From Psilocybe cubensis (Eukaryota), in NCBI GenBank assembly GCA_017499595.2, contig CM039001.1:682001-746000 (forward strand): DNA of 64,000 nt. The letters are read 5' to 3'. The notes below the pieces were generated by a model. It searched no databases. It had not been told where the DNA came from and saw nothing but the letters and a program-made list of their open reading frames with translations. The position numbers and the translations under genes are program-made. The stretch's first letter is position 1. Each line of letters begins with the position of its first letter. Positions 7,120 to 31,068 of this stretch are shown here, piece after piece.

Positions 7120-7499
7120 TTATTTATAACAGTAAACATCGTTGTTGGTCCTGTAGCGTAGTTTTGTGGGGTCGAAGATATCTTTCTCACAGCAAGCAAG
7201 GGTACTCCTGCTCGAGGGGCAGACGCCTCCAGATTGTTGAGCCAATGTCTGACCTAAAATCCAAGTACAATTAGATCGATGCGCAATGTGGATAAAAATA
7301 ATGACTCACATCCTATGCTCAGTCCAGGGCTCACGCTTGGGTAAACGGAGTAGATCAAGACCTTGCAACAAGACGGTGTATAATTTGTACTGCATGTGAT
7401 GCGTCGCTCGAGTTCTTGCGTAACCGGGCTGGCAGTGACCATCATCGATGAGATGAGGCCTATTAGGATAAGAGGGAACGGATTTGGAGTAGCAAACAT
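7120..7499 (-). CDS. Secreted 8-Cys hydrophobin-like prepro-protein, paralog 1 (107 aa; exons 7499-7310, 7253-7120)
   Basis: Signal peptide, then SPVTQELERR|ITCSTNYTPSCCKVLIYSVYPSVSPGLSIGCQTLAQQSGGVCPSSRSTLACCEKDIFDPTKLRYRTNNDVYCYK*. A GT-AG intron splits the Cys4 codon. Confidence 0.85.
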
Positions 7500-8032
7500 A
7501 GTACTGGTGAGTCGTTGAATGAAGGCAGCCGGATGTGTAGAAGAGGTCACTTAAATACCTTTCCCAATTACGGGCCGGGAGACAGTTCATGTATCGGTCA
7601 TTGATCTTGGCTTGATTTCGTTTACGTATTCCGTTTTTAAGGGACCATCCTCAGGTACGCATGATGCTTACCACTTGTAATAATTCCAGAGGGATACATA
7701 TGTACTAATGCATGTCTTGAAAGCTGATTTAATTGAACACCGACGAGCGAGAAGCGCTGTAGCGTCAGGGTTATTCGGAGTTAATATCTCTGATAAATTC
7801 AAAAGCATTCCATAGAGATAATGTCAATTACGAAGGCTAACAGCATAACATATTCCCTCGACCTTTCCAGTTCCGGTGGGCGTATTGGTACATTATACTC
7901 CCGGAGGAACGGAAAATTCTTATTACGACCCATAACAATAGACCTGGTTGTTTGGTTGGCGATAGTATAATTGACCGTCATTGAAAACATGTTCTTCACA
8001 GCAGCCAGATGCACGGGCACGGGCAACAAGAA

Positions 8033-8422
8033 ATGTCAGTGCATGTCAGTGCATGTAAGTGCACGTCGGCACTGACATGCGCTGACAATATAATGTCTAT
8101 GCACTGACATGCACTGACATCACTTAGGATTTGTGAAAAAGTTGAAGTCTGTACTTATATAAAATGAAACTGTGTTCAGTGCAGGATTACTTAGACGGAT
8201 TTTGAATGTATTATAAGTGTCTAGAAATCTACTATCCTCCTAGAATTATCTCTATACTGAATACCAAGAGTTGATGCACTGACACATGCACTGACCGCCA
8301 AGCAATTGCACTGACTTTGCACTGACATGCACTGACGGTGCACTTACATGCACTGACGGTGCACTCACATGCACTGACATACACTGACCTTCATTAATGG
8401 TGCACTGACGATGCACTGACAT
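8033..8422. repeat. Left subterminal array of the ~10-bp GCACTGACAT unit, in both orientations
   Basis: ATGTCAGTGC copies at 8033-8063, then many GCACTGAC(AT/GG) copies up to about 8422. Confidence 0.85.
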
Positions 8423-8966
8423 AGTTTTTACCTTATAATCATGTTATCTTTTATTTCAAATGAAGAACACAATTTTAGGTAAGTAGACTGTATGAGTTTC
8501 CTCTGGTCCATCAGCTGTTCCCAAGACCCGCTTGACTAGGGTGCTTCAATGGGACTTTGTAATTCCCTTTCCCTTTCAGCTGTGACATGGGGACATCGAA
8601 ATACTTACTAGAAATCCGCACCCCAAGCCAAGGCCAATACCAAAGCATTGTTGCGCCTGCAGCCAAGGATGATCCCAAATCATTGTCAAACAGGATCAGT
8701 TATACACTGGAATACTCTGAGGCGCCTATTTAATGATTCCAATACAATTCATTCATTCTTCCCACATCTATGCTTGATTTAGTACACCAGATTGTTACTT
8801 GAAAATGTAGAGAATATATATTTACTTCTATATCTTGTTATTTAGCTATGCCTGACCCAGAAACTCCGAGACCGTATGCTTTAATCATCCCCAAGTTAAC
8901 TTTCTCACGGCCCCAATTTAACAAGTTCAAATTTTGCCACCACACCATCACGATGAACTAACCAAT

Positions 8967-9142
8967 GCACTAACATAACCCTGCATGCACAGGCATGTAC
9001 TGACACACCATGACCAACTTATAGATTATTGGAAACATGCACTGACATTGCACTGACATCACTGCAGTCTGCACTGACATTGCACTGACATTACTGTGGT
9101 ATGCACTGACATGCACTGACCGCACTGACATTGCACTGACAT
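8967..9142. repeat. Right subterminal array of the GCACTGACAT unit
   Basis: Repeated (T)GCACTGACAT(T) units at 9039-9142, with degenerate copies from about 8967. Confidence 0.85.
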
Positions 9143-10365
9143 TTTCCAGTGCCCCACGGGCACCCGTGGGGCAGACGCCTGAAGGCTGCGACGCCAAGGT
9201 GATGCCTATGGTGTTAACGACTGTGTGAGAGCCAATAATGCAACATAAATCGGGTACTTACACCCTGAGCTGAGTCCAGGAGACACGGATGGCCATGAGG
9301 TCCACTGCATGAAGCTACAACAAGCGGGTATGAAATTATATCTGCAGGTGACGCGTGTATCGAGTTCTGGCGCAGGCACCGGATTGGCTATGACTAACGA
9401 AGCCGCAAGAACAGTAAAGAGGTAATAGTTTGAGGTATTGAGGCGCATTCTCTGAAGATTGGAGAACTTGTAGGATATCTTCAAACATTTCTGCTTAAAT
9501 AGTGCTACTCCCCGTCAAATGTTTAATAGCATATGTCTCGATGAAATGACTATTGTTATTCCCGAGTATCTGTTGTTGAGAAAATAGCGAGATGTGAGAT
9601 GCCTAATGATCATCGGCTAGATTCTTACCATGGGACTCGAAAAAAGGTTGACAGCAAATATGACTGATAGGGCGTCTAATTTTTACCCCGACATCACTCA
9701 CTGTACTTACAATGCCAAGCTAACTACTTATTCAAATAAGTGAATCTAGAATATCTTTTATTCAAGCGCTAAGATATTCATTTCGTTGATAATAAAGAGC
9801 CTGGAGGCACATAAGGTCCAGAAAATACTTGTCGGCGTCACTCTGTTTTGTTGTCAGCTTGTTGTTGGCAGATGATAGTCGGCAAACGCTTTCCAGCTGT
9901 TTTCCGATAGTCAGTCTTAAGCTTGCTTGGCAAAAGTGTGCACTCTGCATTTGATAAGAAAACTGCAATAGCGCGCATGTCCAGGGACACAATGCGAAAA
10001 AGATGCTTCCACAGCCTTGCGCCGAACATTACAGCGCGCCTCTTTCCCATTCTAAAAGACCGGAAGTTGTGAATCAATGATCCGTTCTGTCAACATGACT
10101 GTGAAGGTATGTATGAGATGCAGGCGCTTGTAGGTAGAAAAAGCACGGAACCGTTTCTAGCTTCAGGTTTGCAATCAGAATTTAGTACGCCAAAAAGGTC
10201 ACGAAAAACCAAATCATGCCGATGGATTCAATTTGACGAAGGAATGTGAGACGTGGTTCCACAGATTCTACAATATCTACTCGTCGACATTTACATTACG
10301 TGACCGCCTCCTCTGCTATCTCCTACATCATTGTGGTTTAAGGTTGCAATGACGGAGATGATTAA

Positions 10366-10754
10366 CTACGTTCCATAGCAGTAGACCTGGTTGTTTGGTG
10401 GTTGATAATACAGTTGGCCATCATTGAAGATGTGTTCTCGACAACATCCTAATACACGGGCACCGGAAGGGCAAACACCTCCCGGATGCGACGCTAACGG
10501 CGTGCCTAACCAAAATTGTAGATTGTGAGTATGTATCCGTGTGCTATGAAGCGGAAATACTTACATCCAGAACTTAGCCCAGGTACTATGCTTGGCCATG
10601 ATGTCCATGTCATAAAGGAGCAACAGGCCGGTATGTAGTTCAACCAACAATCAACGCGTTTATCGAGTTCGGGAGCGGGCACAGGGTTGGCGCCGACGAA
10701 CGATGCGACGAGGGTTGAAACAGCGAAGTAGTAATTGATGTTATTAACGCGCAT
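10366..10754 (-). CDS. Secreted 8-Cys hydrophobin-like prepro-protein, paralog 3 (109 aa; exons 10754-10565, 10505-10366)
   Basis: MRVNNINYYFAVSTLVASFVGANPVPAPELDKR|VDCWLNYIPACCSFMTWTSWPSIVPGLSSGCTPLASHPGGVCPSGARVLGCCREHIFNDGQLYYQPPNNQVYCYGT*. Confidence 0.88.
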
Positions 10755-10790
10755 AACGAAAAAGAAGCTGGGCTTCCAAAAAACTTGCAA

Positions 10791-11107
10791 GATTCAACGC
10801 TCTTTAAGAAGTGATGCTCTCTTGTTCCAATACAAAGGCAGGAACGTCTGGTGACCGTGGGCTAGATTTTTATCTTGACAGCTCGACGATTGGTTAAGAT
10901 CATACACAGACTGCCCCTCACCCTGATACGGCGGTATTCGAAGACCTAGTTGTATGTCTAAGAATATGGAAGCGCCCCGATACCACCAATGTCACCTTTC
11001 CTTGTAGGCGAGGCTTGGGCTTGGTTGGAATACAATTCAAGGCACATAGTGAAGGGTTGTGCCCAAATAAATCCATGTTCTAGCGCTCAATTAAACGCCT
11101 GGCCAAG
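10791..11107 (-). promoter_or_regulatory. Upstream region of paralog 3, homologous to the upstream region of paralog 4 (12951-13357)
   Basis: Shared blocks GTCTGGTGACCGTGG(G)CTAGATT(T/C)TTATCTTGACAGCTC (10846-10884 vs 13006-13043) and CTAGCGCTCAATTAAAC (11080-11096 vs 13331-13347). Confidence 0.6.
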
Positions 11108-12504
11108 TTAACGAGGCGCGAAAGTGGTTTGCGGAGTGCTCTTGACTGCAGTCGTGAGAACCATTAACAAAGGTCGGGAATTCACTAAAAAGAAAAAAGA
11201 CGAGTGGTTTCCGGCTACATTCCGATTGCAGTGCAAAACCAACGAAATCGTACAGGATCATAATGGCATGCGGGATTTCGCATGGAGTGAGAGAAGGTCG
11301 AATTCCGTTCAGTCTACCAACATATCCTTGGCAGGGGAACTGTACGAAAGCATGACCTGCCTCGTTCCCACTCGCAGCCACCGCTTGATCAGGTGCATTA
11401 GAAGGCAAAGCTTACAAGACTAATGGATGCGTGCGACCGATAATTTCCAGCCCAGTCGAACAGTCTGGTGACAGAGCAAGATATGGCCAAGATAAAGTCT
11501 ACGCATACACACTCAGGTAACGAGGAAAAGATACCCCAATCGAGGAGAACCAGAGTTCGTAGGTTTTTGGTTCTGGAGAAATGCAAGTCCCCGTAGACAC
11601 GCCGATCCGCATCAATGAGAATCATCCATCTTCATGATACCGAACTCGGCGTCGGGTTTACTTGATATGATTATGTGCAGGGTACGTATATGCTGCCTGG
11701 AGTAAGCCCAACCGCGATTTTCGCGCCGCTCAACCGAGTACTTTCTGAGCAATGGCTGGGAAGTAAGGCAAGCGAGAATGGAGCACCGTTACAGCGATTT
11801 GCGCCGAGACTATTAGACCCCATTCCTGACTGAGGTACTTTCATTCCACATGTTTGTAAGAATGCACTTGCCTGATAACCAATTCTTGTTGTTTTGCTAT
11901 AGCTCCTTTTCGTGTACCCCTACAGCGTCATCGTGATGACCACACTAGCCATGACTTGTTCCGCATCGTTGATTTGAGTTTTTTTTACTTTCCACAGGGA
12001 AGTTGAAGCGGTAATTGAGGAAATGGGGCGAATAGATACATGAGCTAGAGGTTCGAGAACGCCGACACTGCAAAACGGGACCGTACGTCGTGGGACGTCG
12101 GATCATCGGATGGCGCCGGGCGGGAGTCGGAGTTTAAAATCACTCGGCAAGTCCCTAAATCTCAAATTTGCCTGCTAAAGCTTTGCTTCGTATATTACAA
12201 CTTGAATGAGCATGGTGCGATTGAAAAAACCCGCTCTAATTATAATGAAGGGCACAAAAATACGCTGTGATAGACACGAAGAGGCACCTAGCTGCGTTTA
12301 ACTCTCAAGAAGGGCTATAACAAACCACTAGTAACTTAAGATTCTCATCATGAAATATCAGACCGTTCTCAAGGTCGCCTCAATTTGAAAGATAAACATA
12401 CGACGTGGATACACATGAGTCAACGTAGCCACTGGATTATATCATAGTGTGATCGATCTTCCCCCCAATATAGGCTCCAAGATTACAATGACTAAACACA
12501 TTAA

Positions 12505-12912
12505 CTATGGTTTATAGCAGTACACCTGGTTGTTTGGCGGGCGATAGTATAGTTGACCATCATTGAAGGTTGCTTCTTGACAGCAGCCTAAAACGAGGAC
12601 TCCAACAGGACAAACACCATTAGGCTGCGCTGTCAATGGCGTGCCTATTCAGTCGTAGCAGCCTTTGAGTATATTTCTGTGTGTGTGTATGATCAGAATA
12701 TAAGACTTACAGCCTGAACTTAAGCCAGGGACTATGGTTGGCCACGATGTCCATGTCATGTAGGAGCAGCATGCCTCTATGTAATTCAACCCGCACTTGA
12801 GGCGTTTTTCGAGTTGGTGAGTGGGCTCTGGGGCGGGCACGGGGTTGGCGCCGACTAATGATGCGAAGAGGGTTGAAACGGTGAAGAAATGTTTGACGTT
12901 TCTAAGGCGCAT
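12505..12912 (-). CDS. Secreted 8-Cys hydrophobin-like prepro-protein, paralog 4 (113 aa; exons 12912-12711, 12644-12505)
   Basis: ...ANPVPAPEPTHQLEKR|LKCGLNYIEACCSYMTWTSWPTIVPGLSSGCTPLTAQPNGVCPVGVLVLGCCQEATFNDGQLYYRPPNNQVYCYKP*. Confidence 0.88.
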
Positions 12913-13785
12913 AACGAAAAAAATGTGGGCTTGTAACTTAGTGATTTCAAGATTCGACGCAGCTTAAGAAGCACTACACCCTCCTTCCAGTACAAAGGCA
13001 ACGATGTCTGGTGACCGTGGCTAGATTCTTATCTTGACAGCTCCACTAATGCTTGAGATCCCAAGAAAAAAGAATGCACATGCACCTTCACCCTGACGCT
13101 CCAAGTTCAAGATTTCATGGAATATAGTCTGTACTATAGATGAGGGTTCGACCTTGAGAAGCAGGAGAAAGTCTCGGCAAGAAATTATAGATAAGGTAGG
13201 CGCTAAAAAACAAAAAAAAGTGAAGCGCCCAGGTACCAACACTGACTTTCGCTTAAAGCCGAATTTATGATTGGACGGAATCCAACTCCAAGGCACACAG
13301 TCAATGGTTCAGCCCAAATCAGTCCACGCCCTAGCGCTCAATTAAACACCTGGTCAAAAACGAGGTAGGTAGGACAACCTGCATTATCTTTGCCCAGCCT
13401 TTGGAAGCAAGGTGCGTGCGATTCATGGAGTGGGATCTGGGGTACTTTTGGGGTGGCCCCACTGTGATTTTCACACCTCTTTACCAAGAACGTTGGGAGC
13501 AGTGATTAGTAAAAGGTATAGTGAAGCAGGGACTTGAGTGCGGTTCCAGAATTTCCGTCGAGACCCATTTGGCGGACCTCGTTGCGTACAAGCGAGAAAC
13601 CCTAGATGAACCCACTAGCCAAAGCTGGATTCCAATCTGAGCAGTTCGAGGCGCGCTTGAAGCAGGCTTGAATGACGGGAGACGGTGCTTGAAATCATTC
13701 GAAGATGCTAGACTAAAAAAACATTGCTATGTATTATTACATCTTGGAAAAAGTACAATCCTACCACATATCCAATATTCAAGCT

Positions 13786-16860
<3,075 letters not shown>

Positions 16861-17063
16861 CGGCTTTAGCGAAGGGAGTGCAGGGAGGTAGGGAGGAATG
16901 GGTAGAGTGGATTTTTGGTGAAAGAGGACAGACGGAAGAAAGAGGAAGGAGAAGAAAAGAAAGCGCAACAAAAACCGGTTGATCATTAACGAGATCGGCG
17001 ACGCGTCGGTCATGTGATCGCAAGAAAGAAAAGAAAAACAAAGAAAATAGGCAGAGAAAAAAG

Positions 17064-17147
17064 TGACCACCGCAGGACTCGAACCTGCAACCTTTTGGTG
17101 CCATTCAGCGATCGAAGCCAAACGCGCTACCATTGCGCTAGGTAGCC
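17064..17147 (-). tRNA. tRNA-Arg (anticodon UCG) with a 12-nt intron (17100-17111)
   Basis: Reverse complement GGCTACC TA GCGC AATGGTA GCGC G TTTGG CT TCG A [TCGCTGAATGGC] A CCAAA AGGTT GCAGG TTCGAGT CCTGC GGTGGTC A. All four stems pair, and a T6 Pol III terminator follows. Confidence 0.95.
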
Positions 17148-17257
17148 ATATTTGCGTCAACATTTGTAAGCATGAGAATCGCACGGGCACATACGGATTC
17201 GACTGGCTTACATACTAAATCCTTGAAGCTCAGTTCAGTTGATTTGACGTCTGGGAC

Positions 17258-17284
17258 TTACACTACACTACACTACACTACACA
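17258..17284. repeat. (CTACA)n pentanucleotide microsatellite
   Basis: ttacactacactacactacactacaca between the tRNA and the USP gene start. Confidence 0.7.
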
Positions 17285-17427
17285 ATTCTACTGTAGTCCT
17301 GTCTTGACCCGTCCTGTATTGCACTGTTGACTACACACCCCATCGGCATTAAACGCACAGCACACCAACTAAGACCCGTCCCGCCCGCTCCGCTCCGCCC
17401 CTGGGCACACCCGAGCCTCCAGGGCAC

Positions 17428-20400
17428 ATGTACATACAGCAGCAGCTCCAAGACATCCTCACAAGCCGCACCTTCCAGCAGACCGCCCCGCTCGTAGTGC
17501 TCTTCGCCGTCCCAGCCGCTGCATTCTTCGCCTCGCGCCTTGTTATCCGACTAAGGGTTATTGAGAGGCTCGTGTTTGTTCTGAGCTGGTGTTGGTCTTG
17601 GACTTTGAATTTGACTTGGTTGGGTATGGGTTTGGAGAGTTTTGGTGTTTCGTGGTTGTGGGCTGGTTCGTCGGGGGCTTCGGGGAGTACGTCGGGGAGT
17701 GGAACGCATGGGAGGAAGAGTAAGCGGAAGACGAGTGGAGGAGCAGGAGGAGGAAGCAACAGCGCAAAGTCGTCCAAAGCCATCCGAACGCGCGCTGATC
17801 AGATTGCACTGCAAAACCTCAAAAAACATGATAACGGTGGGTTATTTTCTTTCATATCAATGAAGTATGGTTAATGGAATGTGTACAGATACTGACGAGG
17901 ACGAGGATGACGGGTACTACGCTGGGCTCGTGAATATCTCGGGGACGTACTGCTTTATGAACTCGACTCTGCAGGCAAGCAGCCAACTCCCTCTCTCTCA
18001 AAAGAAGAAAAAAACTCACTGACTCTCTCACACAAACCACAGGCTCTCGCCTCGCTAAGCTACCTCCAGCCGCAAATCGACGCTATACAGCACAAAGCCG
18101 AGGTCTATGACGTGCCCACACCCGTCATCGACGCCCTACAAGATCTTTTCAAAAGTACGCTATTCAACCAACCCCCACACACCTCCCCGTCATACTAAAC
18201 AAATGTCCATTAATCTCCAGACCTCAACACCCCGAAATCATCGTACCACTCAATCCGGCCACACGGCATCATCGCCGCGCTGTCTTCTCCACCGCCACAA
18301 ACCACAGGTGGCGACTCGACAGTATACCGCACTTCCACCTCGCTGTTCAACTCGCGCGAGCACCAAGACGCACAGGAGCTCTTCCAGCTCGTTACAGAAT
18401 GCATCAAGAACGAGACGGCCGCTGTCGACAGGGAGAGCCAGCGGGATCGGGGTATCGCCGGTGTGCTGGACCTGGACCCGACGACGGCAAAGGCAAAGGC
18501 GAAGTATAAGGAGGAGTATGATGTCCCGGAGATGAAGATCAGTAAGAATGTGTTTGATGGGCTTACTGCGAATCGAAGGAGCTGTGTTATCTGTGGGTAT
18601 ACGGAGGCGGTTATGCATTTTGGGTTTGATAATTGGCAGTTGGCGATGCCGAGACTTGCGGTATGTTGTCTCCCAACCAGACTCTGATTTGAGATGTGAG
18701 CTCATTAATGATAACAATGCAGACTTCATGTCGTCTGGAAGATTGTCTCGAGGACTACACCCGGCTTGAGATACTCAAAGACTGTGTGTGCCGGAACTGC
18801 ACGGTGCTCGCAACGCACAAGCGGCTGTTGCAGGAGCTCAAGTCTCTCGAAGATGCACTGGAAAACCCGGCGCCCTCGTCGTCCGATATGCCATCGTCCT
18901 CTCCGCAAAAGCCAAAACCGTCAAACTCGAAGAAGAAGCGGTACAAGGAAGTCAAGCGCATGGAACAGCGCCTGCGAAAGATTATGGAGGATGGGAGGAT
19001 CGAGGACGATTCGCTTCTAGAGGGCATCAGACTTGAGAAGGTCGTGAGCCCCGCGTCGACAAAGCAGGCTATGATTGCTAGGGTGCGTCGTTACATTACA
19101 AAGTAATTACTTGCTCTCAACGTCATGCTGATTGTACTCTAGCCACCGCCGGTGCTAGCTCTGCACCTGAACCGCTCTGTGCACTACGGGCATTACGCCG
19201 CCAAGAACACGATCAAAGTGATCTTCCCCGAAGTGCTCGATATCACACCATACACGACATCCGGCAGCCTCTCGACCGTCCCCACCAGCACAATATCGAC
19301 ACCGCCTCCACCACTAACACCGCGATACTACCAACCCACGATCCCACAGATCCAAAACACACTCGACTCGAGCGGGGCGAGCAGCAGCGGCAGCGGCGAC
19401 ACCTCTGCCTCGTCCTCGCATCTCGCGCCAGGGCCGAAGCGCGTGCGCACGCCGACACCCGAGACGTACGCGCCGGGTGCGCAGCGGACGATATACAGAC
19501 TTTCCGCGGTGGTGTGTCACTTTGGGCAGCACTCGTTCGGGCACTATATTTGTTATCGGCGGAAGCCTAGGCGGGTAAATGGGAAGTGGATGCCGCCTAC
19601 GCTGATCGACCCTCTGCGGCTGGAGCTGGAGGACGAGGCGCTAGCGTCGTCGCAAGATGGGCAAGGGAAGAAGGCGAACGGCTCTGTGGCGGCTGCGCGC
19701 ATGGCGGATTACGCAGGGTCGTCGACGCTGGGCGAAACGCGGTATTACTGGGAGGACCGGACGGAGGAGGATGTGGGCACGGGCCGGGGGTGGTTGAGGA
19801 TCAGCGACGACTCTGTGACGGAGTGCGGGATCGAGAGTGTGCTGGCGGAGGGCACCGGGGCGTTTATGCTCTACTATGAGAAAGCGGTGCACCCACGGCC
19901 GGGCGTGTACATGAACCACGGCCGGGCGAATGGGTCGGCGGCAGGGACGGCGGTGCTGGTGGGCAATAGGGTCGTTGTGGACGGCAAGATGATGCCGGTC
20001 GGGTGGTTGAATGGGATGGGGACAGGGACAGGGAGCGACAGTGGGCGGGTGGATTATTTGACTGGAGATGGGGACGGGGACGGGGATTCATTCAGCATTG
20101 GGTCGGAGGAGACGCTGAAGCCGGAAATGCGGGTGATGAATCTGAACGGCAGCGTCGGCTCGCTCGTCAGCGAGGTCGGCGTCGGCGTGATGAAGTCCCC
20201 CAAGAAGGAGAAAAAGAAGCTGGAAAAGAAGGACTCGATGTCAAACATGAGCATGAGCCTCACCATGCCCGCCTCCTCCTCCTCGTCCCTTGCATCCGCC
20301 GTCTTTGGTGCCCGCATTGTCCGCAGTGTGAATGCGCGCAGACGGAATACCCCAGAGAGCGCTTCTGCGTCCAACGGAAGCGCTCTTCTTCCCAACGGGA

Positions 20401-20651
20401 TCCACGCCACAGATCCACCACCACCGTCCGTCAATGGCTCCGCGGCCCACGAGGACGACAGCGCGTTGTCGGCTATGACCGCATCTGCGCCTTCTATCCT
20501 TCCCAGTCCGCCTGTCGAACCACCGAATCAGCCTTCGAGTTCGACGCCTAAACCCCCTTCTCCCAAAAAATCGTCGCATCTAGGCCATGGTTCCAAATCG
20601 ACGAAAGTGATGCACTCATCGCCACCCAGTGTCAAAGTCAAGGCGCGATAA
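17428..20651 (+). CDS. Ubiquitin-specific protease (peptidase C19) with N-terminal hydrophobic membrane segment (Ubp1/USP30-like), multi-exon
   Basis: Cys box GLVNISGTYCFMNSTLQALASL, HQDAQELFQ, CxxC pairs, LALHLNRS, His box VVCHFGQHSFGHYICYR, and WLRISDDSV. Confidence 0.9.
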
Positions 20652-21651
20652 ACTGAATACTGAATCGTTTACTTATTATTCTATGCATAATCCACTCTTC
20701 AGCTCAATTCTCGTCTACGGAACAAACCAAAAAAAAGAATATCTATTCTTATTCTACCCCCCAACTCTCAACTTCGAATCCGAATCCAAATTCGCAAATG
20801 AGTTTTGTTAGATCTCCCCGTCTCCTTTTTTTTTCTACATTATTCAAAGTTACATCTGCATATGCGTCCGTCTCTGTACATTTTTATATCACTGGCCATT
20901 TTCATCTTTCGAGTTTTATCATTCACCCCATCACTTATTCACAGAATCACAACTTTGAACTGATTACATCCACGTCCAACCCTCCAACCCTGTTTTTTTT
21001 GGACATCTACTCTGCTTTTGGGGCCGTCGACCGAGTGACATTATGCAGCTCCATTTCACAACGCGATTTATGAACCCACCAACACCAACACCATCTCATC
21101 TCGTTTGATAATCGATTCGGCCACCACGCCATGTACTTGTAGCTGTATTTTTTCTTTCTCTTTTCGTTCCTTTTCTTTTTATTTACAAATCTTATGAATA
21201 ATCTGCATATACTTCGAAGTTTGGCGTTCAGAAATAGAGATGGGATTGTGGTTGGTGGTGGTACATATAAATGATGTGATATGGATATGATATGAGTGGT
21301 ATCTAGTGATGTAGGGTATAGTGAGTGCCAACTGTCCAGCAGAACGGTATATAAGTTAAGAACGGTACATAAGTTATAATTATATGCGCATGCGTGTGGG
21401 GGAATGGGGAATGGGATGCATAGAGCTCACAACGTGAAAGCCATACAAGGAAAGCAGTGGTAGTACGAAAACTTTGATAGCGAAAAACGAAAGCGAAAAC
21501 GAAAATAAGAACATAAGAAAACAATGGACATGACTCCTGGACGAAACAAGCGCGTGTTAAAGTCAAGCTTGGGCGCTTCAGCGCTCAGCTTCAACCTTCA
21601 AAATCCAAAACCCAACCCCAAGTTAAGTGCAATAAATTATAAAACCCATCC

Positions 21652-22826
21652 TCACCGCTCACTGCTCATGCTCACTGCACGCTGCAGCTCAGCTTGCGCA
21701 CGGCAGACAAATGCAGTCGCGGCGGCTTCTGAATCATCGGGAGAATAATATCCGTTGATGGAGCGTAGTTGTTCACGTTCGCTTCGAGATCGTGGATACG
21801 TATAGCTTTCCAGCTCTGCGAGGAATCTGCTAGTGTGGATGGAGGTCAAAGTCAGAGATTGGGGTCGTGTGCAATGCGCGAAGGGCGAAGGGGTATGGGG
21901 TGTATCGTGTATTGTGTATCGGCGTGGTACGCACCTGTATTTTCTTTTGGAGCAGGGAGAGACGCGAGAAGCGACTCGATGGCGGCTTCGACTGCCGCTT
22001 CCAGCGCGGAGAGGTCATCCGCGTCTGTCGTACTCGTCTCTAGCCCATCGTCGCGCCCCATTCCAAGTCCGAGTCTCGCGTACTTGACGCGCTCCATCTG
22101 CTTCGTTATCATCTATGTATACATACGCAAAAAATTTCAGGGGACAGTGTAATAGAATGATGGAATCCAGCGCTCAATTCGACGCGACGCGCCGCCTCCG
22201 AGCGAAAGCGCCATAGTATGAAAGGAGTGTAACGAGTTCAAGCTTACCCTAAGACTAAGCGCGAACGCGCGGATCTCCTGGGAAAGCCGGAGAAACGCGA
22301 TAGTCTTGAACCACCTCCGGAGCGTCTGCACGATACCGCCTTTTGCTGGGGACTCGGACGTAGTACTAGTAGTAGTAGACCTTGGTGTCGTAGCGAGCAT
22401 CAGCGTCTTCAGCTGGTACTCCAACCTATCGGTACCCAGCAGCGTATCAGAATTGAATATTGAATATTGAAATCGAGTAGAGGATATTGTAATTGATTGA
22501 AGGCAAAGCACACACCTCTCGACGTGCCAGCGGAGCCGCACCAAGTGCTTGCCATGCACACCCCTCCCAGCACACGTCCCCGTGGGCCCACCTTCGCACT
22601 GAGCCTCAACAACAATCCCACACAGCCTTTCAAAAGCCTCCCAAACGCGATCCATGCCCTCCGCAGACGCAAGCCACAGGTCGAGGTCGCGGTCTCGGAA
22701 GTAGCACCACCGCCAGCGCCCGTAGCGCCGCGCGAGGAATGCCGCGGTCGAGCAGAGGACCCCGAGTGCGGAGAGGGCGGTGAGTGTGAATGTGAGCGGG
22801 TCCATGCCTAGGACTGTCGCGTCCAT
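21652..22826 (-). CDS. Hypothetical protein with N-terminal transmembrane helix, multi-exon
   Basis: Successive minus-strand ORFs (22137-22826, 21852-22112, 21652-21849) with GC-rich coding-like composition and a hydrophobic N-terminus. No family recognised; exon boundaries uncertain. Confidence 0.45.
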
Positions 22827-24772
22827 TGTGTGTTGATTCGATGATTCGGTACCGTCCCAACGCGAGCAAATGAGGAAACGCGGAGCTGTGTGGTGTGGCT
22901 GCGATGATGTGGGGAGGGTATGGAGTGTAGAGGTTAGAGTACAGAGTATAAGGATAAGGTTGCAAATTTAATAAACCCTCATATCTGCGCGTCGATTTAG
23001 CTTTTTAACGTTCCCAATTCTCCGCGTCGTGGCTGCGAAACCATTGACCCCAACACGAAATGAGCGAAATGAATGAATGAATGGATCAAATGGATCAAAA
23101 ACAGACATGTACTTGACGTAGAATTAGTGGGCGCGGAAAGCTGTGGCGGTGAGGTTGAGCTATCAACGAGGCTAGCTTCGCGATGTAAGTTATTCAAGTT
23201 CCTGCTACGGACCCTTCTATTTCAAAAATCGAATTGATGATCGTGAGTCATACTAATATCTAGAACTGCATAAAACATCATAGAATCACAGCGAATGGTC
23301 ATCATGAGGTCCCGCGCCGAGATGAAGAGTGCATCCACAAACCTCAAGAAAGACTATTATAAGCCCCTATCAAGCCCCTATACACGTCTATTAATAACTA
23401 TTTTCCTTATTTGGACTGTTTTTGGTGGTTGGTGGTTAGGGATGATAATGATGATGTCGTGGTGGCAGGTGTAAACGAGGTTCTAGGTTTGTTCTGCATA
23501 ACATCGGAACCTGAGTCATGCGCTCTAGCTATTGGGGATTTAGGATCGAGGATGGCGATATTGATGATCGTGAGTCATAGCGGGATGACGATGAGAGCGG
23601 GACGCGTGGTTGGCGCGAGGTTGCGGTTGCTGTTGCGGTTGGCGAAGAGGTCTCAAGACTCAGGATGATTGCGGCCATTGGGCGTGTAGATGTTGAAGCT
23701 GAGGGGTTCCGGTCACGACTTTTGGGTTCAAGGTCTTCGTTTTGGTGACAATGAGGTTCAGCGCTAGTAGCGCTTAAAGTTATAGGAAGCATCGAGGGCA
23801 TCGTTGTATATCATATCATACCTTATCATGCTCTCCTAAAACTTGTAGTGCCCACCAATTGTCTTGCCAGACATCCAAAAGACCGTTGAATGGCGATTGG
23901 AAGTAAGAAACGAAACTGTACCTCTCAGCCGTCTACTGCCATCGCTCTCAGCTTATTCCATATCTCCTAAGAGAGCAAAATCAGACATCTACGTCAGTAC
24001 ACTTAATCTCGGAAAAAATACGAGCGCCCATGACAAACCCGCAAACAACGAGGTCTTCTAAACATGAAATTAACGTCGTCTACACAGCTTTGAGGGCACC
24101 ATATTATAATTATAGTGGTCACTTGCACAAAGACTTGAGGTTGAACCCGTTATTGGGCGGTGCATCTGCAATCATCCATGAGGGAGCCATGATGTCTAAA
24201 TTATAAGTTTGGTGTTTATATAGCTTTGCGTTTAGACACTGGCACCATTGACGAAATCACGGATAAAAAAAGATCATCCACTGACTGGCATGACGGGTAG
24301 AAAAAAAAACAGAATTAAAAAAGTGGTATAACTGATTGATTGATTGCTTCCAGAAGTCAATAAGAAACGTGCAATAAAACGTACAGAAATAAGAGGAAAA
24401 ACAAAAAAAAATCTAATAGAGTAGCTCATTCCGATGCTAGCCAGTTGGTGTGGTACAATAATTTGCAAAAAAGGAACAGTGAACACATCAACAAACGCAA
24501 AAATCCCAGGAACGGAACCGCAGAAAAAGTGAAGCCCCTATTTCCAAAGTAGCTTAGCCAGGAACGCCACGAGGAAGCGGTGGACCGTGGTGGCGGCGTA
24601 AGAGAATCGTGTATGAAATCGTGTGTTGTGAATCCAGAGTTCGAGTTCTTTAGTGGTGATGGTGTTACAGAGAGAAACAAAACTACAGCTTCGCCGTCTA
24701 CGGGACTTGGGTACTTTGGGGACGGACGGACTTGGGAAAGGCCGCGGGGCGGTTGGGTCGGGCCGTCGACGA

Positions 24773-25333
24773 TCACCAGTAGACCCTGCGGTCGATGGTG
24801 CGGCGGCGGTCGATCGTCGGGCGGGTGTATGAGATGGTGCGTCGGACGCGAGTGACGGTCGGGTACCTGTATATGCCAATTCAATGCAAGGTAAAGTGGT
24901 GCAAGCGTTAGTAGATGTGTAGCAGGAATGGCGATGGTGTACTTGCCAGGCATTGTACACTTCGCCGTCGAGCTGCACCTCGATGATTTGGCGGCCCTGC
25001 AATGGGGAAGGTAGAGTAAGCTTTGTGTTCTGTGTGTGAGTGTAGAGGTGGACGTACAGCGTAGTCGAAGTGAGATCCGATAACTAGACCTTCGGTCCTT
25101 CCTTTGGTGCCATGGCGCACGGCAACGATGTCTCCTGGCTATGTATCATGAAGTAAAGCGAATATATGCGCCGAGGAGAATGTCGATGAGTCAATGAGAA
25201 GAAAAACGTGGGCATGCAAAAGAGCGTCGATCGGTGGGAGAGCGGAGGGAAGAAGGATAGCGAGTGAGTGCATGCACAATCATATAGCGAAGATACTTAC
25301 AGTGATGAGAGGCTCTTCAGTAATAGTCGACAT
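24773..25333 (-). CDS. Small 85-aa hypothetical protein, 4 exons (25333-25301, 25138-25058, 24996-24947, 24866-24773)
   Basis: Spliced product MSTITEEPLITPGDIVAVRHGTKGRTEGLVIGSHFDYAGRQIIEVQLDGEVYNAWYPTVTRVRRTISYTRPTIDRRRTIDRRVYW*. The frame is kept across two GT-AG introns and one GC-AG intron. Confidence 0.7.
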
Positions 25334-26480
25334 GGCGAAAAAACGAGAAAAACTATACAGACGTTCTTGGTGGTGGTGGTGGTGGTTTCTGTCAACGCAG
25401 AAAAATATAGTAAGCAAATTTGCAGGCTTGTCATTGTGCGGCCATGCATAGCGAGCTTCCTCCGACATCGCCCATTGGGCTTCTCGGCAATTGCCAATCG
25501 ATCCCCGACGTCGAGCCTCGAGGCCACCCGTACGTTAACAATGCACAATGTAAACTAGACTCACACAAACTTGACCTTGGAGTCGATTGCTGAGTGTTGA
25601 GAGTAGTCTTGCTGATAAAGGTGAATGGGAAGGGATCCGGGAAAGTGTCGCTGTGATTTATAGGATGCGAAGCCTAGCCTGAGATTAGATGACGGCTGTC
25701 CAATGAATGCTGCAGGCTGCGAAAGGTGAGGCGCGCCTCGAGGCAGAACCTCATTTGTTCCCGAACCCCTGTCCGCTTGTTCTCGCCATCAATATCACCT
25801 CGCATGACCACTGTTCGGGTCGGTCATCCTAGTCTTCGGCGGGATCATCAACGGACATTATGGCAAAGAAATTGGTCTCTCTAGCGACGATGCCATTCAT
25901 TCTATGAAATCGCACTACAGAAAACAATACATTGTAAGTACAATAACCTTGTAGTAAGTACAACACAAAAATTCTTCTAAATTTATCGCTGCTCAAATCG
26001 ACGATCATGTTTTTGCCCGCTTCCGTAAGTCCTCCGTTCGTTTTGTCGGGCATGCGCCACTGGCACGAGGATGCATGCCCTTCAGCGCGTTTTCAGAAAG
26101 CAATGATACATGTATCATGACCCAGATTAGATTTCCTGTGTTGATTCAAGGCGTGAGGGTCAAGATTTAGTATCACAGCCCGGAGGACTTAGAACCCCAA
26201 AACCCAGGTCGAGACAGTTTGTGTCAACGACTAAACAAACCAAATAGATGCATCAAAACGAGACACTGACGAGGATTTCTCGTCATAGGACTCTAGAAAA
26301 AAGGCCACGGGAGAGGAAAACCATGTGGAAGAGATACTTCGTGAGAGATATCATCGACTCTCAAGCAAAGGGAGATGGAGAAAGAGGAATCAATGCGACA
26401 TCCCGGTAAGAAAAATAATATGTTTGTGGTGCTCGGATGTTCGGACGGAAATATCACAGCGGGATGTATTCATGATGTCA

Positions 26481-28157
26481 TCACGCACCGACACCAAACC
26501 AACGTCGAAAAAGTGCGCGGATCCACTGAATAAGTGGCAGTATCCCAAGGAAATAGGAACCAGAGTCGTTTCCGGTCTGCGAGCCAGCTACTGCACCACT
26601 TGACCCTACTCCACCACTGCTGGCAGTGGGATCTAGTGTTATCTCCTTTGCACGCTCTTCGATGGCGCGAAGGATATCAGGGGCACAATCGTCGTAGAGC
26701 CTGCCAATTTCGGATTCTCGATTGTAGTACGAACGACGGACAGCGTACGGTGCCAGTCCGTTGTACTTGCGCACCGTCGAATTAAGCTGCGCGACAGCGG
26801 TTTCGTGGTAGCTTTTCTCTTTCGCGATCCATTCGGGGTCGCGATAGTTTTGAATATCTTTTATTGTGAGTCGGTGTAGGATCTCTGCTGGATGGTTCAT
26901 TGCGAGACCGCGTGTGGCACGACGAATCCACGACTGACGCAAGATCTCCCTGAAAGTGTTTACGGCGTTCTCTAACTCTGTTGCATACAGATCAGTCAAG
27001 GATCCCTGACAAGACTTGATATCGAGTGCATACCTACTTGGAGCTCGACCCATGGGGGAGCTGCGCCGTTCTTTTGTACAACTCGGTTCATCAAAAACTC
27101 CTCTCGCGCGATGAAGGGATTGAACTCTGCTGCTGAACGAGCCAGGGGTTTGCCTCGTCCCTGAACTGTATTGAATACACCAGCTTTGCGAGCTTTCTGC
27201 GGTACACAGTCAATCGATATTGATGAGTAAACATGAAAACAAGCATACCTCTATCTTATCTTCTACCAAGCTATTCCACCCTTTCAAACTAATGGGATTG
27301 ATACGACCAGCCCTAGGCGCACCAGTAGTTTTAATACCCAGTTTATAGTCCAATGTAGACTCCCGCGCTTCCGAGAGCTTCGTAGCCTGCCGTGTCCTCT
27401 TGATCTTTTCTCTCTCCAACCGACGCGCCTTATCGTCCAGCGGTGGGGACACCGTCGTAGGTTTAGACGAGACCATCAACGGCATCTGTGCAAGCTTGAT
27501 CGCGGCCGTATCGTGTTTCGGCGCTTTGAACTCAGTATGCCACGGCTGGTGTCCTTCACTGGAAGGAAGCAACGGCTCAGTCGCCCATGAACCCGTCGTA
27601 GGAGTCAACTTCACCGGAGGAAGCGATGTCGCATCGGACCCCTGCACCTCGATCCCACCTGACATCCCATCATCCACACTCTCGAAAGGCAGCGCACCAG
27701 ACGCGACGGAAGACAGCTTCGGTGGCGCCTGCTTGAGTTTCTGCTCGGCCGTCTGGATGGTGCCCGTGCGGAGGGGCTTGTACTTGTCGACGAGCATGCG
27801 CAATACGGCGTCTTTGATGCTCTCGTCGCCCGTCCAGTTCTCATGCTCCTGTTCTAGGTGGGCGAGGCGGGATGGTTTGTTCGCAGCGGCCTTTGCGGCG
27901 CGTGCGTCTTCTGCTTCTTCTCGTTGGGCATCTGCGAAGAGCTTGGCGCTGCCGCTGAGTCCTGACGGTGGTGGTTGTGCAGGAGAAGGGGCCGAGGTGT
28001 GATTGTTGCGCCAGGACCGTAGTGGTAGGCTGCGGGCGTAGACATAGGTGTAGGGATTAGAAGATGAAAACGAGAGTCGCGAAAGGGTGCTGAAAGGGAG
28101 TTGATGTGCGGCAGTGGTTCGAAGGCCTGGACAAATTGGTTGCATGCAGAGAAGCAA
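26481..28157 (-). CDS. DUF1992 (DNAJC28 conserved domain) protein, probably mitochondrial
   Basis: WTGDESIKDAVLRMLVDKYKPL, LVEDKIE|KARKAGVFNTVQGRGKPL and RKYNGLAPY; Arg/Ser-rich N-terminus. The start codon is uncertain. Confidence 0.7.
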
Positions 28158-29400
28158 AATTTACGTTTGTTGACGGTTATGTTTTTTCGTGGCTCTTCTT
28201 TTCTGCCACCATCATCCTCTTGGGTCTCCAGTCCAGTGTGCGGTCTTTTGCCTCTCTCCACCACGTACAGATGGGTAGAACAGCTGCGAACTCATGTCTA
28301 CCTTAGATCTTAGTTTGGGGCAAGTTGTCGGGGAAGCTTTCTTCTGATATCCTTGGACTGTTTGCAGCACTTGGTGCATAACGATCTGGTCCAGGACTCC
28401 GATATCACTTCATGGCACCAAAACCCAGGCTCCGGACGCTTTCTGTTCACTGGACCCCATCGGCCATGTTCACAGAGCTATGACCACAAATGCTATCTGC
28501 TAACACTACCGTGCTCTGCCTGTCCGGAGCTATTATATCTCACCCCACACGTCGTTTACATCAGGTCATATGCAAGCAGCACTTGAAGACTGCATCTGCG
28601 CATCTGTTTATACTTGGACATGACGCCTGCCCTCCCACCAGAGGCAGCGGCAGTTGGCGGCAGTAAAGTCATGTCTCGTTTACCGTGTCTAGTGTCCAGC
28701 TGCGGATACACTACCTCCTATATCCGTATTGAAAAGCCTCTCCGTCTCTTGTCGCATCTCGGGAAATTGTTGTCATTTATAACCTGCTTATGAAGACATG
28801 CTCTTCAGCGCTGCTCTCTTTCATGTGTGACATTGGGCCTTTCTTGCAATCGATATGCGCAGTGAAAGGTGCTGTCGTTTGATGTCGGACCGATGTGCAT
28901 TTGAACGCATAGACGCCCAATAATGGACTCTTCCGGGATTTTCGCGGATCTTGACATTTTTCATTGTAAAGTGATCCTCTCGTGGATTTCGCTTTCTTCC
29001 CTTGCGTACTACGGTCACTAAATACTAGCCCAGCTGTTGGCCTCGACTACAGAAAAAATTCATTACTCGGTGAGCTCTATTAACCGCGAGTAATTGAATG
29101 CACTGAGCATCTTTCCCATGCAATATTAAGTCAATCAAAAGAATCTTCAAAAATACATCCTGGGTGCCTGCCATTTTCTAAGAATACACAACTCAGTATG
29201 GTCATTCCTCAGATGCGTATCAACGGCAGAGAGATAGTTGGTCAGCGACATGGAAAAACTGATCCTATCCTGACGTTGAATGTCGAGGCCCGGATTGCTC
29301 CTTTCATCGTTGACCATGAATCAGGCAATGGTGATGTATATAAGAAGGGAGGATATGGGGTATGTATCTCCAGTCGGCCATCAACCTACTGTTCTCGACG

Positions 29401-29772
29401 ATGCATATCTCAAAATCGACTCTGTTCGTCTTTATTGGACTGGTATCGACACTTGTCAATGCCAACCCAATACCGGAACTCGATAAACGCATCACTTGCC
29501 CATTCGCCACTGTGCCTGCCTGCTGTCAATTAATTGAATTTGAGAGCTTTCCGGAGGTCGTAGCTGGCCCAAGTGTGGGATGTGCGTGATGAAGTTCTTT
29601 ATCAAACGTGACTGTGCAATATAATACCTACCTCGAATTTCTAGGTTCTACATTGGCTTCCGAGCCTGGGGGTGTTTGTCCTTCTACAGCCAGTACGCTC
29701 GGCTGTTGCGATACATTCGGGGGCGGGCAACTACTTTTGCAGAACGGGGAATTTTTATGTATTGTACCATAG
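29401..29772 (+). CDS. Secreted 8-Cys hydrophobin-like prepro-protein, paralog 5 (102 aa; exons 29401-29581, 29645-29772)
   Basis: MHISKSTLFVFIGLVSTLVNANPIPELDKR|ITCPFATVPACCQLIEFESFPEVVAGPSVGCSTLASEPGGVCPSTASTLGCCDTFGGGQLLLQNGEFLCIVP*. Confidence 0.87.
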
Positions 29773-30395
29773 GAGGGAGGGGCGTTGGGTGGAATATTGC
29801 AAAGATGACAAGGGGATATATTTGACTACGCACCAATTTCTAACTGTTCAGTGAAAAAAATTATACACTCAACTGGAGATAAAATGGGCCAATACATACC
29901 TGGTACTGTCTAATAGACTGCCATTAAGCGCTCATCGCCTCCATCACTCGCGGCTTTCTCGCGGGTCAATGTCACATTTACACATACCCGTAAATTATCC
30001 GTACAGTTATTCTAACTACAGTCTGTTCTGCAAAATGATCCAAAGCGCCTTATAAACTGGGGGCCACGCTGGAAAATGTAATCAGGATAGGTAAGGTATT
30101 CAATTGCCTGTTCAGAGATCAATGCATTGAGTGCCTGATCGTCTCCAAAAATAAAGTGTACTCGCGTCTTGCGCATAGCTCAACGTCTAAAGATAGTCTG
30201 GACAGATAAACCCTCAACAGACAAGCGACGTGAAGTCTGTATGAAATTTCCGCCTCATTTTCCGAGAATCCCCATCGAATGCGAAACGGACTAGTCCCTA
30301 CGTAACCTGGAAAAAGATATTTAAACTGGATGACAATGGTTTCTATACTCCAGCTCCCAGACAGTCTACAGACAAACGACGAGCATTACAACGAT

Positions 30396-30785
30396 ATGTA
30401 CACCAGCATCGCAAAATCTACTCTCTTCGTCGCTCTCGGCCTCCTCGCGTCGTTCGCGAGCGCCAACCCATTACCAGAGCTCGAGAAACGCATTACATGC
30501 CAGCTCAACTACATCCCAGCGTGCTGCAGCTTTATGGAATGGGAGTCGTGGCCCCAAGTTGTACCTGGATTAAGCTCAGGGTGTAAGTGAAGGCATGCCA
30601 GTATTATGAAAGTAAATATATTTATAAATCCCCCTCCTTCAACAGGTACTCCACTGGCCTCCGAGCCAAATCAAGTTTGCCCTGCCGGTGCTCTGGCCCT
30701 TGGATGCTGCCAGCAAAACTTCTTCACTGCTGGACAGCTTCAGTATGGTGCCAACAACCAGGTCTACTGTTACGGCCAATCGTAA
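30396..30785 (+). CDS. Secreted 8-Cys hydrophobin-like prepro-protein, paralog 6 (108 aa; exons 30396-30582, 30646-30785)
   Basis: MYTSIAKSTLFVALGLLASFASANPLPELEKR|ITCQLNYIPACCSFMEWESWPQVVPGLSSGCTPLASEPNQVCPAGALALGCCQQNFFTAGQLQYGANNQVYCYGQS*. Confidence 0.88.
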
Positions 30786-31068
30786 ATGTTATGGAAACCT
30801 CGTATGAGACCTGAATTAGTAGCTGCCTTGCAATGCGTTATACAATGGTGTATTCCGATTCACAATGATAAATATTGAGACTTTCTTTCCAACTCCATAT
30901 ATAATGATATTAGGGGTGACCCGCCGGCAGATGAAGTTTATAATGATAAACCTCGCGTAAACGTTGATTTTCTTGAAGGGAATCGATGAAGAGTTCAGTA
31001 GATCCATACAGCTCTTACTTGCTGTTGACCTTACTGGCAACCTCGATGCGTTCGTGTCTCTTAGAAGC

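Follow-up and report, generated by a model that had tools for sequence, protein, structure and literature searches.

Hydrophobins share the cysteine order C-CC-C-C-CC-C and are sorted by the spacing between these cysteines, with C-X5-8-CC-X17-39-C-X8-23-C-X5-6-CC-X6-18-C-X2-13 reported for class I and C-X9-10-CC-X11-C-X16-C-X8-9-CC-X10-C for class II, the latter described as ascomycete-only (PMC5938622); a looser published pattern accepts X5-9 between the fifth and sixth cysteines (C5 and C6) (PMC10820438), and an intermediate or mixed class (class III) has also been recognised (PMC12375992). In these proteins the hydrophobic patch comes from two long stretches between cysteines, and the C7-C8 segment drives rodlet formation by EAS (PMC12375992). 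Nineteen class I hydrophobins of Grifola frondosa have grand average of hydropathy (GRAVY) values of 0.27-0.95 and carry no Trp (PMC10820438), the hydrophobin cryparin is processed by Kex2 (PMC5048421), and OmSSP1 of Oidiodendron maius, a Pfam-negative hydrophobin-like protein, is needed for full ericoid mycorrhization (PMC5938622). Here, we describe a family of six genes (p1 to p6, between positions 7120 and 30785) in a 64,000-nucleotide stretch of the Psilocybe cubensis genome (GCA_017499595.2, contig CM039001.1, positions 682,001 to 746,000; hereafter the window), whose products keep this cysteine order and which we regard, with some reservation, as a divergent hydrophobin-type family of secreted proteins that goes unmatched in Pfam.

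The gene models were obtained from a listing of open reading frames (ORFs) together with three-frame reading, followed by a script that placed a donor at the codon of the fourth cysteine (Cys4) and an acceptor restoring the long frame, and this script returned one model per locus. At every locus the first ORF opens with a hydrophobic N-terminus, followed by a brief Pro-rich run up to a basic pair and by C-X7-CC-X18-C, and stops just past Cys4. Four genes lie on the reverse strand: p1 (7499..7120) has exon 1 at 7310-7499, a 56-nt intron at 7254-7309 (GTGAGT..AG) and exon 2 at 7120-7253 including the stop, giving 107 aa and a propeptide ending in ELERR; p2 (9448..7923) is disrupted, with exon 1 at 9262-9448, the intron at 9206-9261, exon 2 in two pieces at 9155-9205 and 7926-8017, the stop at 7923-7925 and a propeptide ending in ELDTR; p3 (10754..10366) has exon 1 at 10565-10754, a 59-nt intron at 10506-10564 and exon 2 at 10366-10505 (109 aa, ELDKR); and p4 (12912..12505) has exon 1 at 12711-12912, a 66-nt intron at 12645-12710 and exon 2 at 12505-12644 (113 aa, QLEKR), its propeptide being 4 aa longer than those of the other window copies. 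On the forward strand, p5 (29401..29772) comprises exon 1 at 29401-29581, a 63-nt intron at 29582-29644 with a weak donor (GTGCGT) and exon 2 at 29645-29772 (102 aa, ELDKR), and p6 (30396..30785) comprises exon 1 at 30396-30582, a 63-nt intron at 30583-30645 and exon 2 at 30646-30785 (108 aa, ELEKR). The two sub-clusters, 7120-12912 (reverse) and 29401-30785 (forward), thus point apart, with the 5' ends of both facing inwards. In all six copies the intron is 56-66 nt long, bounded by GT..AG and in phase 1, splitting the Cys4 codon between its first and second bases (T|GY). When all exon peptides were searched against the 64-kb window with tblastn, six loci were recovered, with self matches at E values of 1e-21 to 1e-46 and 6-11 queries per locus, and no seventh locus scored better than E = 0.018; the confinement of matches to these loci excludes a chance origin of the pattern. 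The first-pass annotation, made from the letters alone, had placed six two-exon genes here, each with a phase-1 intron splitting the Cys4 codon, and had read propeptide ends of KR with RR in p1 and TR in p2. Positions, intron and propeptide ends all agree with our spliced models, and the two-exon structure holds for five genes, exon 2 of p2 being split by a 1,129-bp insertion.

To place these genes among known proteins, we built an alignment (A1) from read-throughs of the in-frame introns of p4, p5 and p6 (X at the stop) together with exon pieces of p1-p3. Its profile gave seven matches at E <= 1e-3 among 1.84 billion representative proteins, one of which, P0007 (an 860-aa repeat protein with 12 matching stretches), was taken as spurious. 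P0005 is the P. cubensis hypothetical protein JR316_0004332, which contains p5 exon 1 letter for letter, adds an upstream exon and retains the intron; P0003, from Psilocybe cyanescens, is a full 108-aa relative; and Tirmania nivea is the source of P0004. Three more members, P0010, P0011 (Terfezia claveryi) and P0012 (Amanita muscaria), came from word-based searches in which family alignments were run against 5.8 billion proteins. P0010 is P. cubensis JR316_0004333, that is, spliced p6 with an identical splice junction and a 20-aa N-terminal extension from a start at 30336, an extension that is probably spurious because the relatives start at the second Met. A word-based protein search with p3 exon 1 alone returned no match, and counterparts of p1-p4 were not returned from the 5.8-billion-protein collection, so that these four genes appear unannotated. 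A scan of Joint Genome Institute metagenome contigs further yielded two truffle-like loci, L001:2980-3582 and L002:2875-3323, each single copy, whose introns (255 and 101 nt) are also in phase 1 at the same Cys4 codon; the intron position is therefore identical in all eight genomic copies read, which represent two phyla. A look through papers for where canonical basidiomycete hydrophobin genes carry their introns yielded no usable statement. The family as found comprises P. cubensis, P. cyanescens, Amanita muscaria, the two desert truffles, the two metagenome contigs and three unlabelled fragments. By taxonomy look-up, Psilocybe and Amanita belong to the Agaricales and Tirmania to the Pezizaceae (Ascomycota), so the family, although very small among billions of proteins, is not private to one lineage. 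Both P0010 and P0003 are named 'Hydrophobin' automatically in UniRef, where such names are drawn from InterPro signatures. The earlier description of the family as undescribed is qualified by these names, while the accessions of the relatives were absent from the main texts of the papers searched. Listings for Psilocybe or Terfezia combined with hydrophobin contained nothing on the family, as judged from the listings themselves, and a large hydrophobin survey preprint lacked the terms Psilocybe, Tirmania and Terfezia in its text.

The protein architecture was compared across 12 full-length sequences, namely the six window copies (p2 with its insert removed in silico), L001, L002, P0003, P0004, P0011 and P0012, with the spacing of P0003, P0004 and P0011 counted by eye. 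All 12 have N-termini that look like signal peptides by eye, and all carry exactly eight cysteines in the order C-CC-C-C-CC-C within a domain of 72-78 aa, an order that the first-pass annotation had claimed for the window copies. C1-C2 is 7 and C3-C4 is 18 throughout; C4-C5 is 10 in eight sequences and 7 in the four truffle-type ones; C5-C6 is 8-10 in every sequence, C7-C8 is 19-20 in 11 of them, and the tail after C8 is 2-4. In the window the mature domains follow 7/0/18/10/8/0/X, where X is 19 in p1, 20 in p3, 20 in p4, 16 in p5 and 19 in p6. The spacing first read from the letters (X7/X18/X10/X8/X16-20) accordingly stands for p1 and p3-p6, with p2 departing from it at C5-C6, which is 10. 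The two residues before the mature domain read KR in four of the six window copies, with RR for p1 and TR for p2. Among the relatives, Amanita and all four full-length truffle-type sequences have KR and P. cyanescens has QR, the truffle-type propeptide being longer at about 18 aa. The most conserved segments, NYIPACCxFxxWxSWP..PGLSSGC and FxxGQLxY..NxxVYCY, are aromatic and polar, and the C3-C4 and C7-C8 segments abound in Trp/Tyr/Phe, Pro, Ser/Thr and Gln/Asn instead of Leu/Val/Ile. Mature-domain GRAVY runs from -0.18 to +0.12 in 11 of the 12 sequences and reaches +0.69 in p5, which also lacks Trp, has a C7-C8 of 16 and is hydrophobic; the isoelectric points (pI) span 4.1 to 8.5. GRAVY is near zero in five of the six window copies, and the first description of the loops as aromatic and Pro-rich was borne out; they are polar as well. 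p1 and p5 are the most divergent window copies, and p5 may have moved towards classical hydrophobin behaviour or may be decaying.

Set against the described classes, the family resembles class I (PF01185; EAS, SC16, PcaHyd1 of P. carnosa, RodA) in having a secreted precursor of ~100 aa with the same cysteine order, in C1-C2 (7), C3-C4 (18), C4-C5 (10) and tail (2-4) lengths that fall within the published ranges, in the best, marginal structural matches of one predicted model, and in its clustered multi-copy genes in an agaric. It differs from class I in C5-C6 (8-10 versus 5-6), in C7-C8 (19-20 in 11 of the 12 versus a maximum of 18) and in the truffle-type C4-C5 of 7, as well as in its Trp, its aromatic-polar rather than aliphatic loops, its GRAVY of about 0, its propeptide running to KR and the lack of a PF01185 match. 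With class II (PF06766; HFBII, NC2, cryparin) it shares the cysteine order, a C5-C6 of 8-9, the nearest language-model clusters and a putative Kex2 site, cryparin being Kex2-processed, whereas C1-C2 (7 versus 9-10), C3-C4 (18 versus 11), C4-C5 (7-10 versus 16) and C7-C8 (16-20 versus 10) all differ; unlike the ascomycete-only class II, moreover, the family is found mainly in Agaricales and gives no PF06766 match. The initial claim that the spacing fits neither class is thus strictly correct against the published ranges (C5-C6 for class I, four of five intervals for class II), yet the misfit to class I is modest and the X5-9 pattern nearly accommodates the family. OmSSP1, compared by its description only, is likewise a member of a small family with few orthologues and has the hydrophobin cysteine order without a Pfam or InterPro match, but it has a C3-C4 of 7, a C5-C6 of 5, a GRAVY of +0.53 and a Gly-rich low-complexity region. 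The Trichoderma HFS hyphosphere proteins, which are small, secreted, surface-active and moderately hydrophilic and have eight cysteines, invite the same comparison, but theirs are eight single cysteines (C-CXXXC-C-C-C-C-C) in proteins of 219-280 aa, for which gene transfer between fungi has been put forward (PMC8596622).

Several leads, weak but consistent, point to a hydrophobin fold, namely the UniRef name, the language-model neighbours and the structural matches of one AlphaFold2 model. For P0004, the three nearest named clusters in a language-model atlas were hydrophobins (PF06766), scoring 0.84-0.85 with 168-174 of 256 features, and all ten of its best named atlas matches fell in one family or clan. 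Five of the seven best structural matches of AlphaFold2 model 1 were hydrophobins, marginally and for a low-confidence model. Other results weigh against this assignment. The atlas scores lie below 0.9 and are rated by the tool as 'a lead only'; the predicted local distance difference test (pLDDT) values of the two AlphaFold2 models are low (52.8 and 53.9), and the cysteine pattern may have steered AlphaFold2; model 2 (Tirmania) gave no hydrophobin structural match, and Foldseek returned nothing at E <= 1e-3 for either model. In a Pfam scan run without a positive control, PF01185, PF06766 and PF22354 were unmatched at E <= 10 by seven relatives (P0003, P0004, P0006, P0008, P0009, P0010 and P0011), three intron read-throughs and six single-exon pieces, which fits the earlier view that the proteins belong to neither class. 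The family profile retrieved no canonical hydrophobin at E <= 1e-3 among the 1.84 billion representatives and no PDB chain at E <= 10. Furthermore, mature GRAVY in 11 of the 12 sequences is below all 19 published Grifola class I values, and C5-C6, at 8-10, exceeds the class I range of 5-6. The only Pfam rows, Trans_coact (E = 0.12-0.31) and Levi_coat (E = 0.22), were taken as chance, and five weak phmmer matches of P0003 to PDB (E = 0.046-1) were unrelated. For the mature part of P0010, the atlas feature search gave no usable match, and the ESM model (pLDDT 0.58) had as its nearest neighbour, at a template modelling (TM) score of 0.53, a hypothetical ascomycete cluster in which PF28987 scores below threshold; a complex prediction for two p6 mature domains scored 0.00 and gave no answer. 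Thus the structural comparison divides, one model leaning towards hydrophobins and the other giving no such match, and the suggestion of a hydrophobin-fold subfamily, one of two offered by the first-pass annotation, keeps its fold leads while going without a Pfam match. Taken together, the family carries the scaffold signature of hydrophobins, probably shares their fold, and lies outside both Pfam families as now defined.

The same observations could be read differently, with an unrelated disulfide-rich fold arriving at this cysteine order by convergence and a kexin-released peptide of 8 kDa acting either in defence, against microbes, nematodes or fungivores, or as an extracellular signal, with its conserved aromatic surface binding a target; we give this perhaps one chance in a few. 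No sequence-level link to hydrophobins was found by Pfam or profile searches, low hydropathy with high Trp/Tyr is atypical for hydrophobins, and the top Foldseek rows by E value were three-finger toxins, at non-significant values of 2.8-10. A prepro-region with a KR site typifies fungal killer toxins and antifungal proteins, and multi-copy clusters with divergent members such as p1 and p5 fit defence-type families. The language-model neighbours, however, are hydrophobins, selection is purifying rather than diversifying where it can be measured, and pI values of 4.1-8.5 are not uniformly cationic, as those of many antimicrobial peptides are.

That selection was estimated on the mature domain, where the ratio of nonsynonymous to synonymous substitution rates (dN/dS) was 0.15 for p3-p4, 0.14 for p2-p4 and 0.37 for L001-L002, so the domain is under purifying selection wherever dS is measurable. 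Mature-domain identity among the window paralogs is 40-75%. Against the truffle sequences, the core group of p2, p3, p4 and p6 shows 47-56%, and a comparison of p3 with the P. cyanescens and Amanita relatives gives about 55%. dS was saturated in eight of the 11 pairs tested, and because synonymous sites are saturated in most pairs, the duplicates are old. The 'birth and death' first proposed for the cluster therefore keeps its death, in the p2 insertion, but no recent birth is apparent. An unrooted maximum-likelihood tree separated the four truffle-type from the eight agaric sequences with support of 99/98 and resolved little else. In it, the paths that join Amanita to the truffles (about 1.0-1.1) are as long as the path that joins it to p3 (0.99); in such a tree, which is uninformative on nesting and direction, these lengths fit either horizontal transfer or strong constraint with paralogy. 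The cross-phylum identity of 47-56% could have arisen by transfer between the phyla, or the family may be ancient and have been lost many times. As the core group is no more distant from the truffles than the agaric copies are from each other, a bolder joint reading can be drawn, which we consider unlikely as a whole: a third, structurally distinct 'aromatic-loop' branch of hydrophobins, near-neutral in hydropathy, which would use its conserved Trp/Tyr and Q/N-rich loops to attach to wall polysaccharide or to zip together instead of to repel water, and whose gene would have moved, intron included, horizontally between Agaricales and Pezizaceae truffles.

We hold it improbable that the family consists of effectors directed at a host or partner, that is, mycorrhiza-induced small secreted proteins, possibly of hydrophobin-like fold, acting mainly in symbiotic interfaces and less on the surface of the fungus itself. 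Among the five named species, three are mycorrhizal (Amanita muscaria, Tirmania nivea and Terfezia claveryi), but the largest known expansion, with six copies, sits in the saprotroph P. cubensis, and P. cyanescens carries the family too. OmSSP1 provides a precedent for such a role (PMC5938622), and the effector reading overlaps with the hydrophobin-type assignment rather than opposing it.

Least credible, to the point that we give it hardly any weight, is the reading of the loci as non-functional remnants or gene-prediction artefacts with ORFs and introns not expressed as modelled: the RNA contigs leave p4 uncovered and list no joint at p5 or p6, p2 is broken by an insertion, and p5 has a weak donor and a GenBank model that retains the intron, whereas the intron keeps its position and phase with GT..AG in all eight genomic copies from two phyla, the eight cysteines are kept in 12 of 12 sequences with dN/dS of 0.14-0.37, and independent annotations in four other species yield the same spliced protein. 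The contigs in question come from runs X10 and X11, presumed to be RNA, and were examined over 10850-30849, which holds p4-p6 only; we take them as spliced RNA because neighbouring genes show GT..AG or CT..AC joints. The bins at p4 had no cover in the X10 or X11 contigs, and over p5 and p6 the depth was a flat 3.8-5, seen in X10 only, with none of the listed joints falling there.

The insertion in p2 exon 2 occupies 8026..9154 (1,129 bp) and is flanked on both sides by a perfect 8-bp direct duplication, TGCCCGTG, at 8018-8025 and 9155-9162. Near both of its ends the insert carries a 10-11 bp unit, TGCACTGACA, in inverted subterminal arrays, and the eight occurrences of this unit in the window, against 0 expected, all fall within the insert, in which no long ORF was seen. 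Removing the insert and one copy of the duplication in silico restores the p2 frame. The insert is a non-autonomous transposon-like element, and the 8-bp duplication suggests that it is of hAT type. In two DNA runs, X7 and X9, a contig with the exon 1 at the p3 position (86 nt from 10850) ends in a 3' end identical to that of p2, which reads ..YGS, stop, GAATTTTCCG.. and is unlike p3 (region ~10366-10850 and 12514). Based on cross-aligned pieces and a 30-nt loose end, these contigs suggest recombination between p3 and p2, or strains that differ in copy number.

The sub-clusters are separated by ~16 kb carrying ordinary spliced genes, a protein kinase and a ubiquitin hydrolase among them, and a fragment of a major facilitator superfamily (MFS) transporter (5246-6486) is found just outside p1. 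No functional link is suggested by this context (MFS transporter, protein kinases, ubiquitin C-terminal hydrolase, BTB, aldehyde dehydrogenase, MYND and SAM). Within it, on the reverse strand at ~24300-25600, a spliced transcript is very strongly represented in the RNA-like contigs, at depths of about 2,283 and 750, against 20-110 for its neighbours; it has at least four CT..AC joints, and its longest ORF piece, 24429-25145, has no Pfam match.

Returning to the hydrophobin-type assignment, we infer a mechanism that takes in signal-peptide and kexin cleavage, disulfide pairing, fold and function. The signal peptide would bring the pre-pro-protein into the endoplasmic reticulum and be cut after a small-x-small site (..VGA|NP, ..ASA|NP), and the eight cysteines would form four disulfides, by analogy with hydrophobins C1-C6, C2-C5, C3-C4 and C7-C8. 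Kexin prefers L-x-K-R, and a Kex2-type kexin in the Golgi would take off the propeptide of 9-15 aa after L-x-(K/R/T/Q)-R, after which the mature domain of ~8 kDa would be secreted. The domain would probably be a small hydrophobin-like beta-barrel, with C3-C4 (18 aa) and C7-C8 (16-20 aa) each forming a hairpin. Because these segments are aromatic and polar, the protein is expected to be only mildly amphipathic, and it would be likely to work at the surface of hyphae or fruiting bodies as a coat or adhesion protein associated with the wall or an interface. A strongly water-repellent rodlet layer would not be expected; contacts could instead be made through aromatic and Q/N residues, the best candidate for self-association being the conserved Q/N/Y-rich C7-C8 segment (GQLYY..NNQVYCY).

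Collectively, the gene family is real, conserved and mostly unannotated, and it exposes a blind spot of annotation, in that four of the six window copies have no counterpart among 5.8 billion proteins and a fifth is mis-modelled. A mildly amphipathic, kexin-released hydrophobin-like protein of 8 kDa may be of interest for surface coating. The patchy spread over two Psilocybe species, Amanita and desert truffles, together with one conserved intron, sets an ancient origin with massive loss against inter-phylum transfer. If these proteins are true relatives of the hydrophobins, they would widen the sequence and physicochemical range of the fold to polar, aromatic-rich, Trp-containing members with a longer C5-C6, and censuses of hydrophobins based on Pfam would be missing whole subfamilies.

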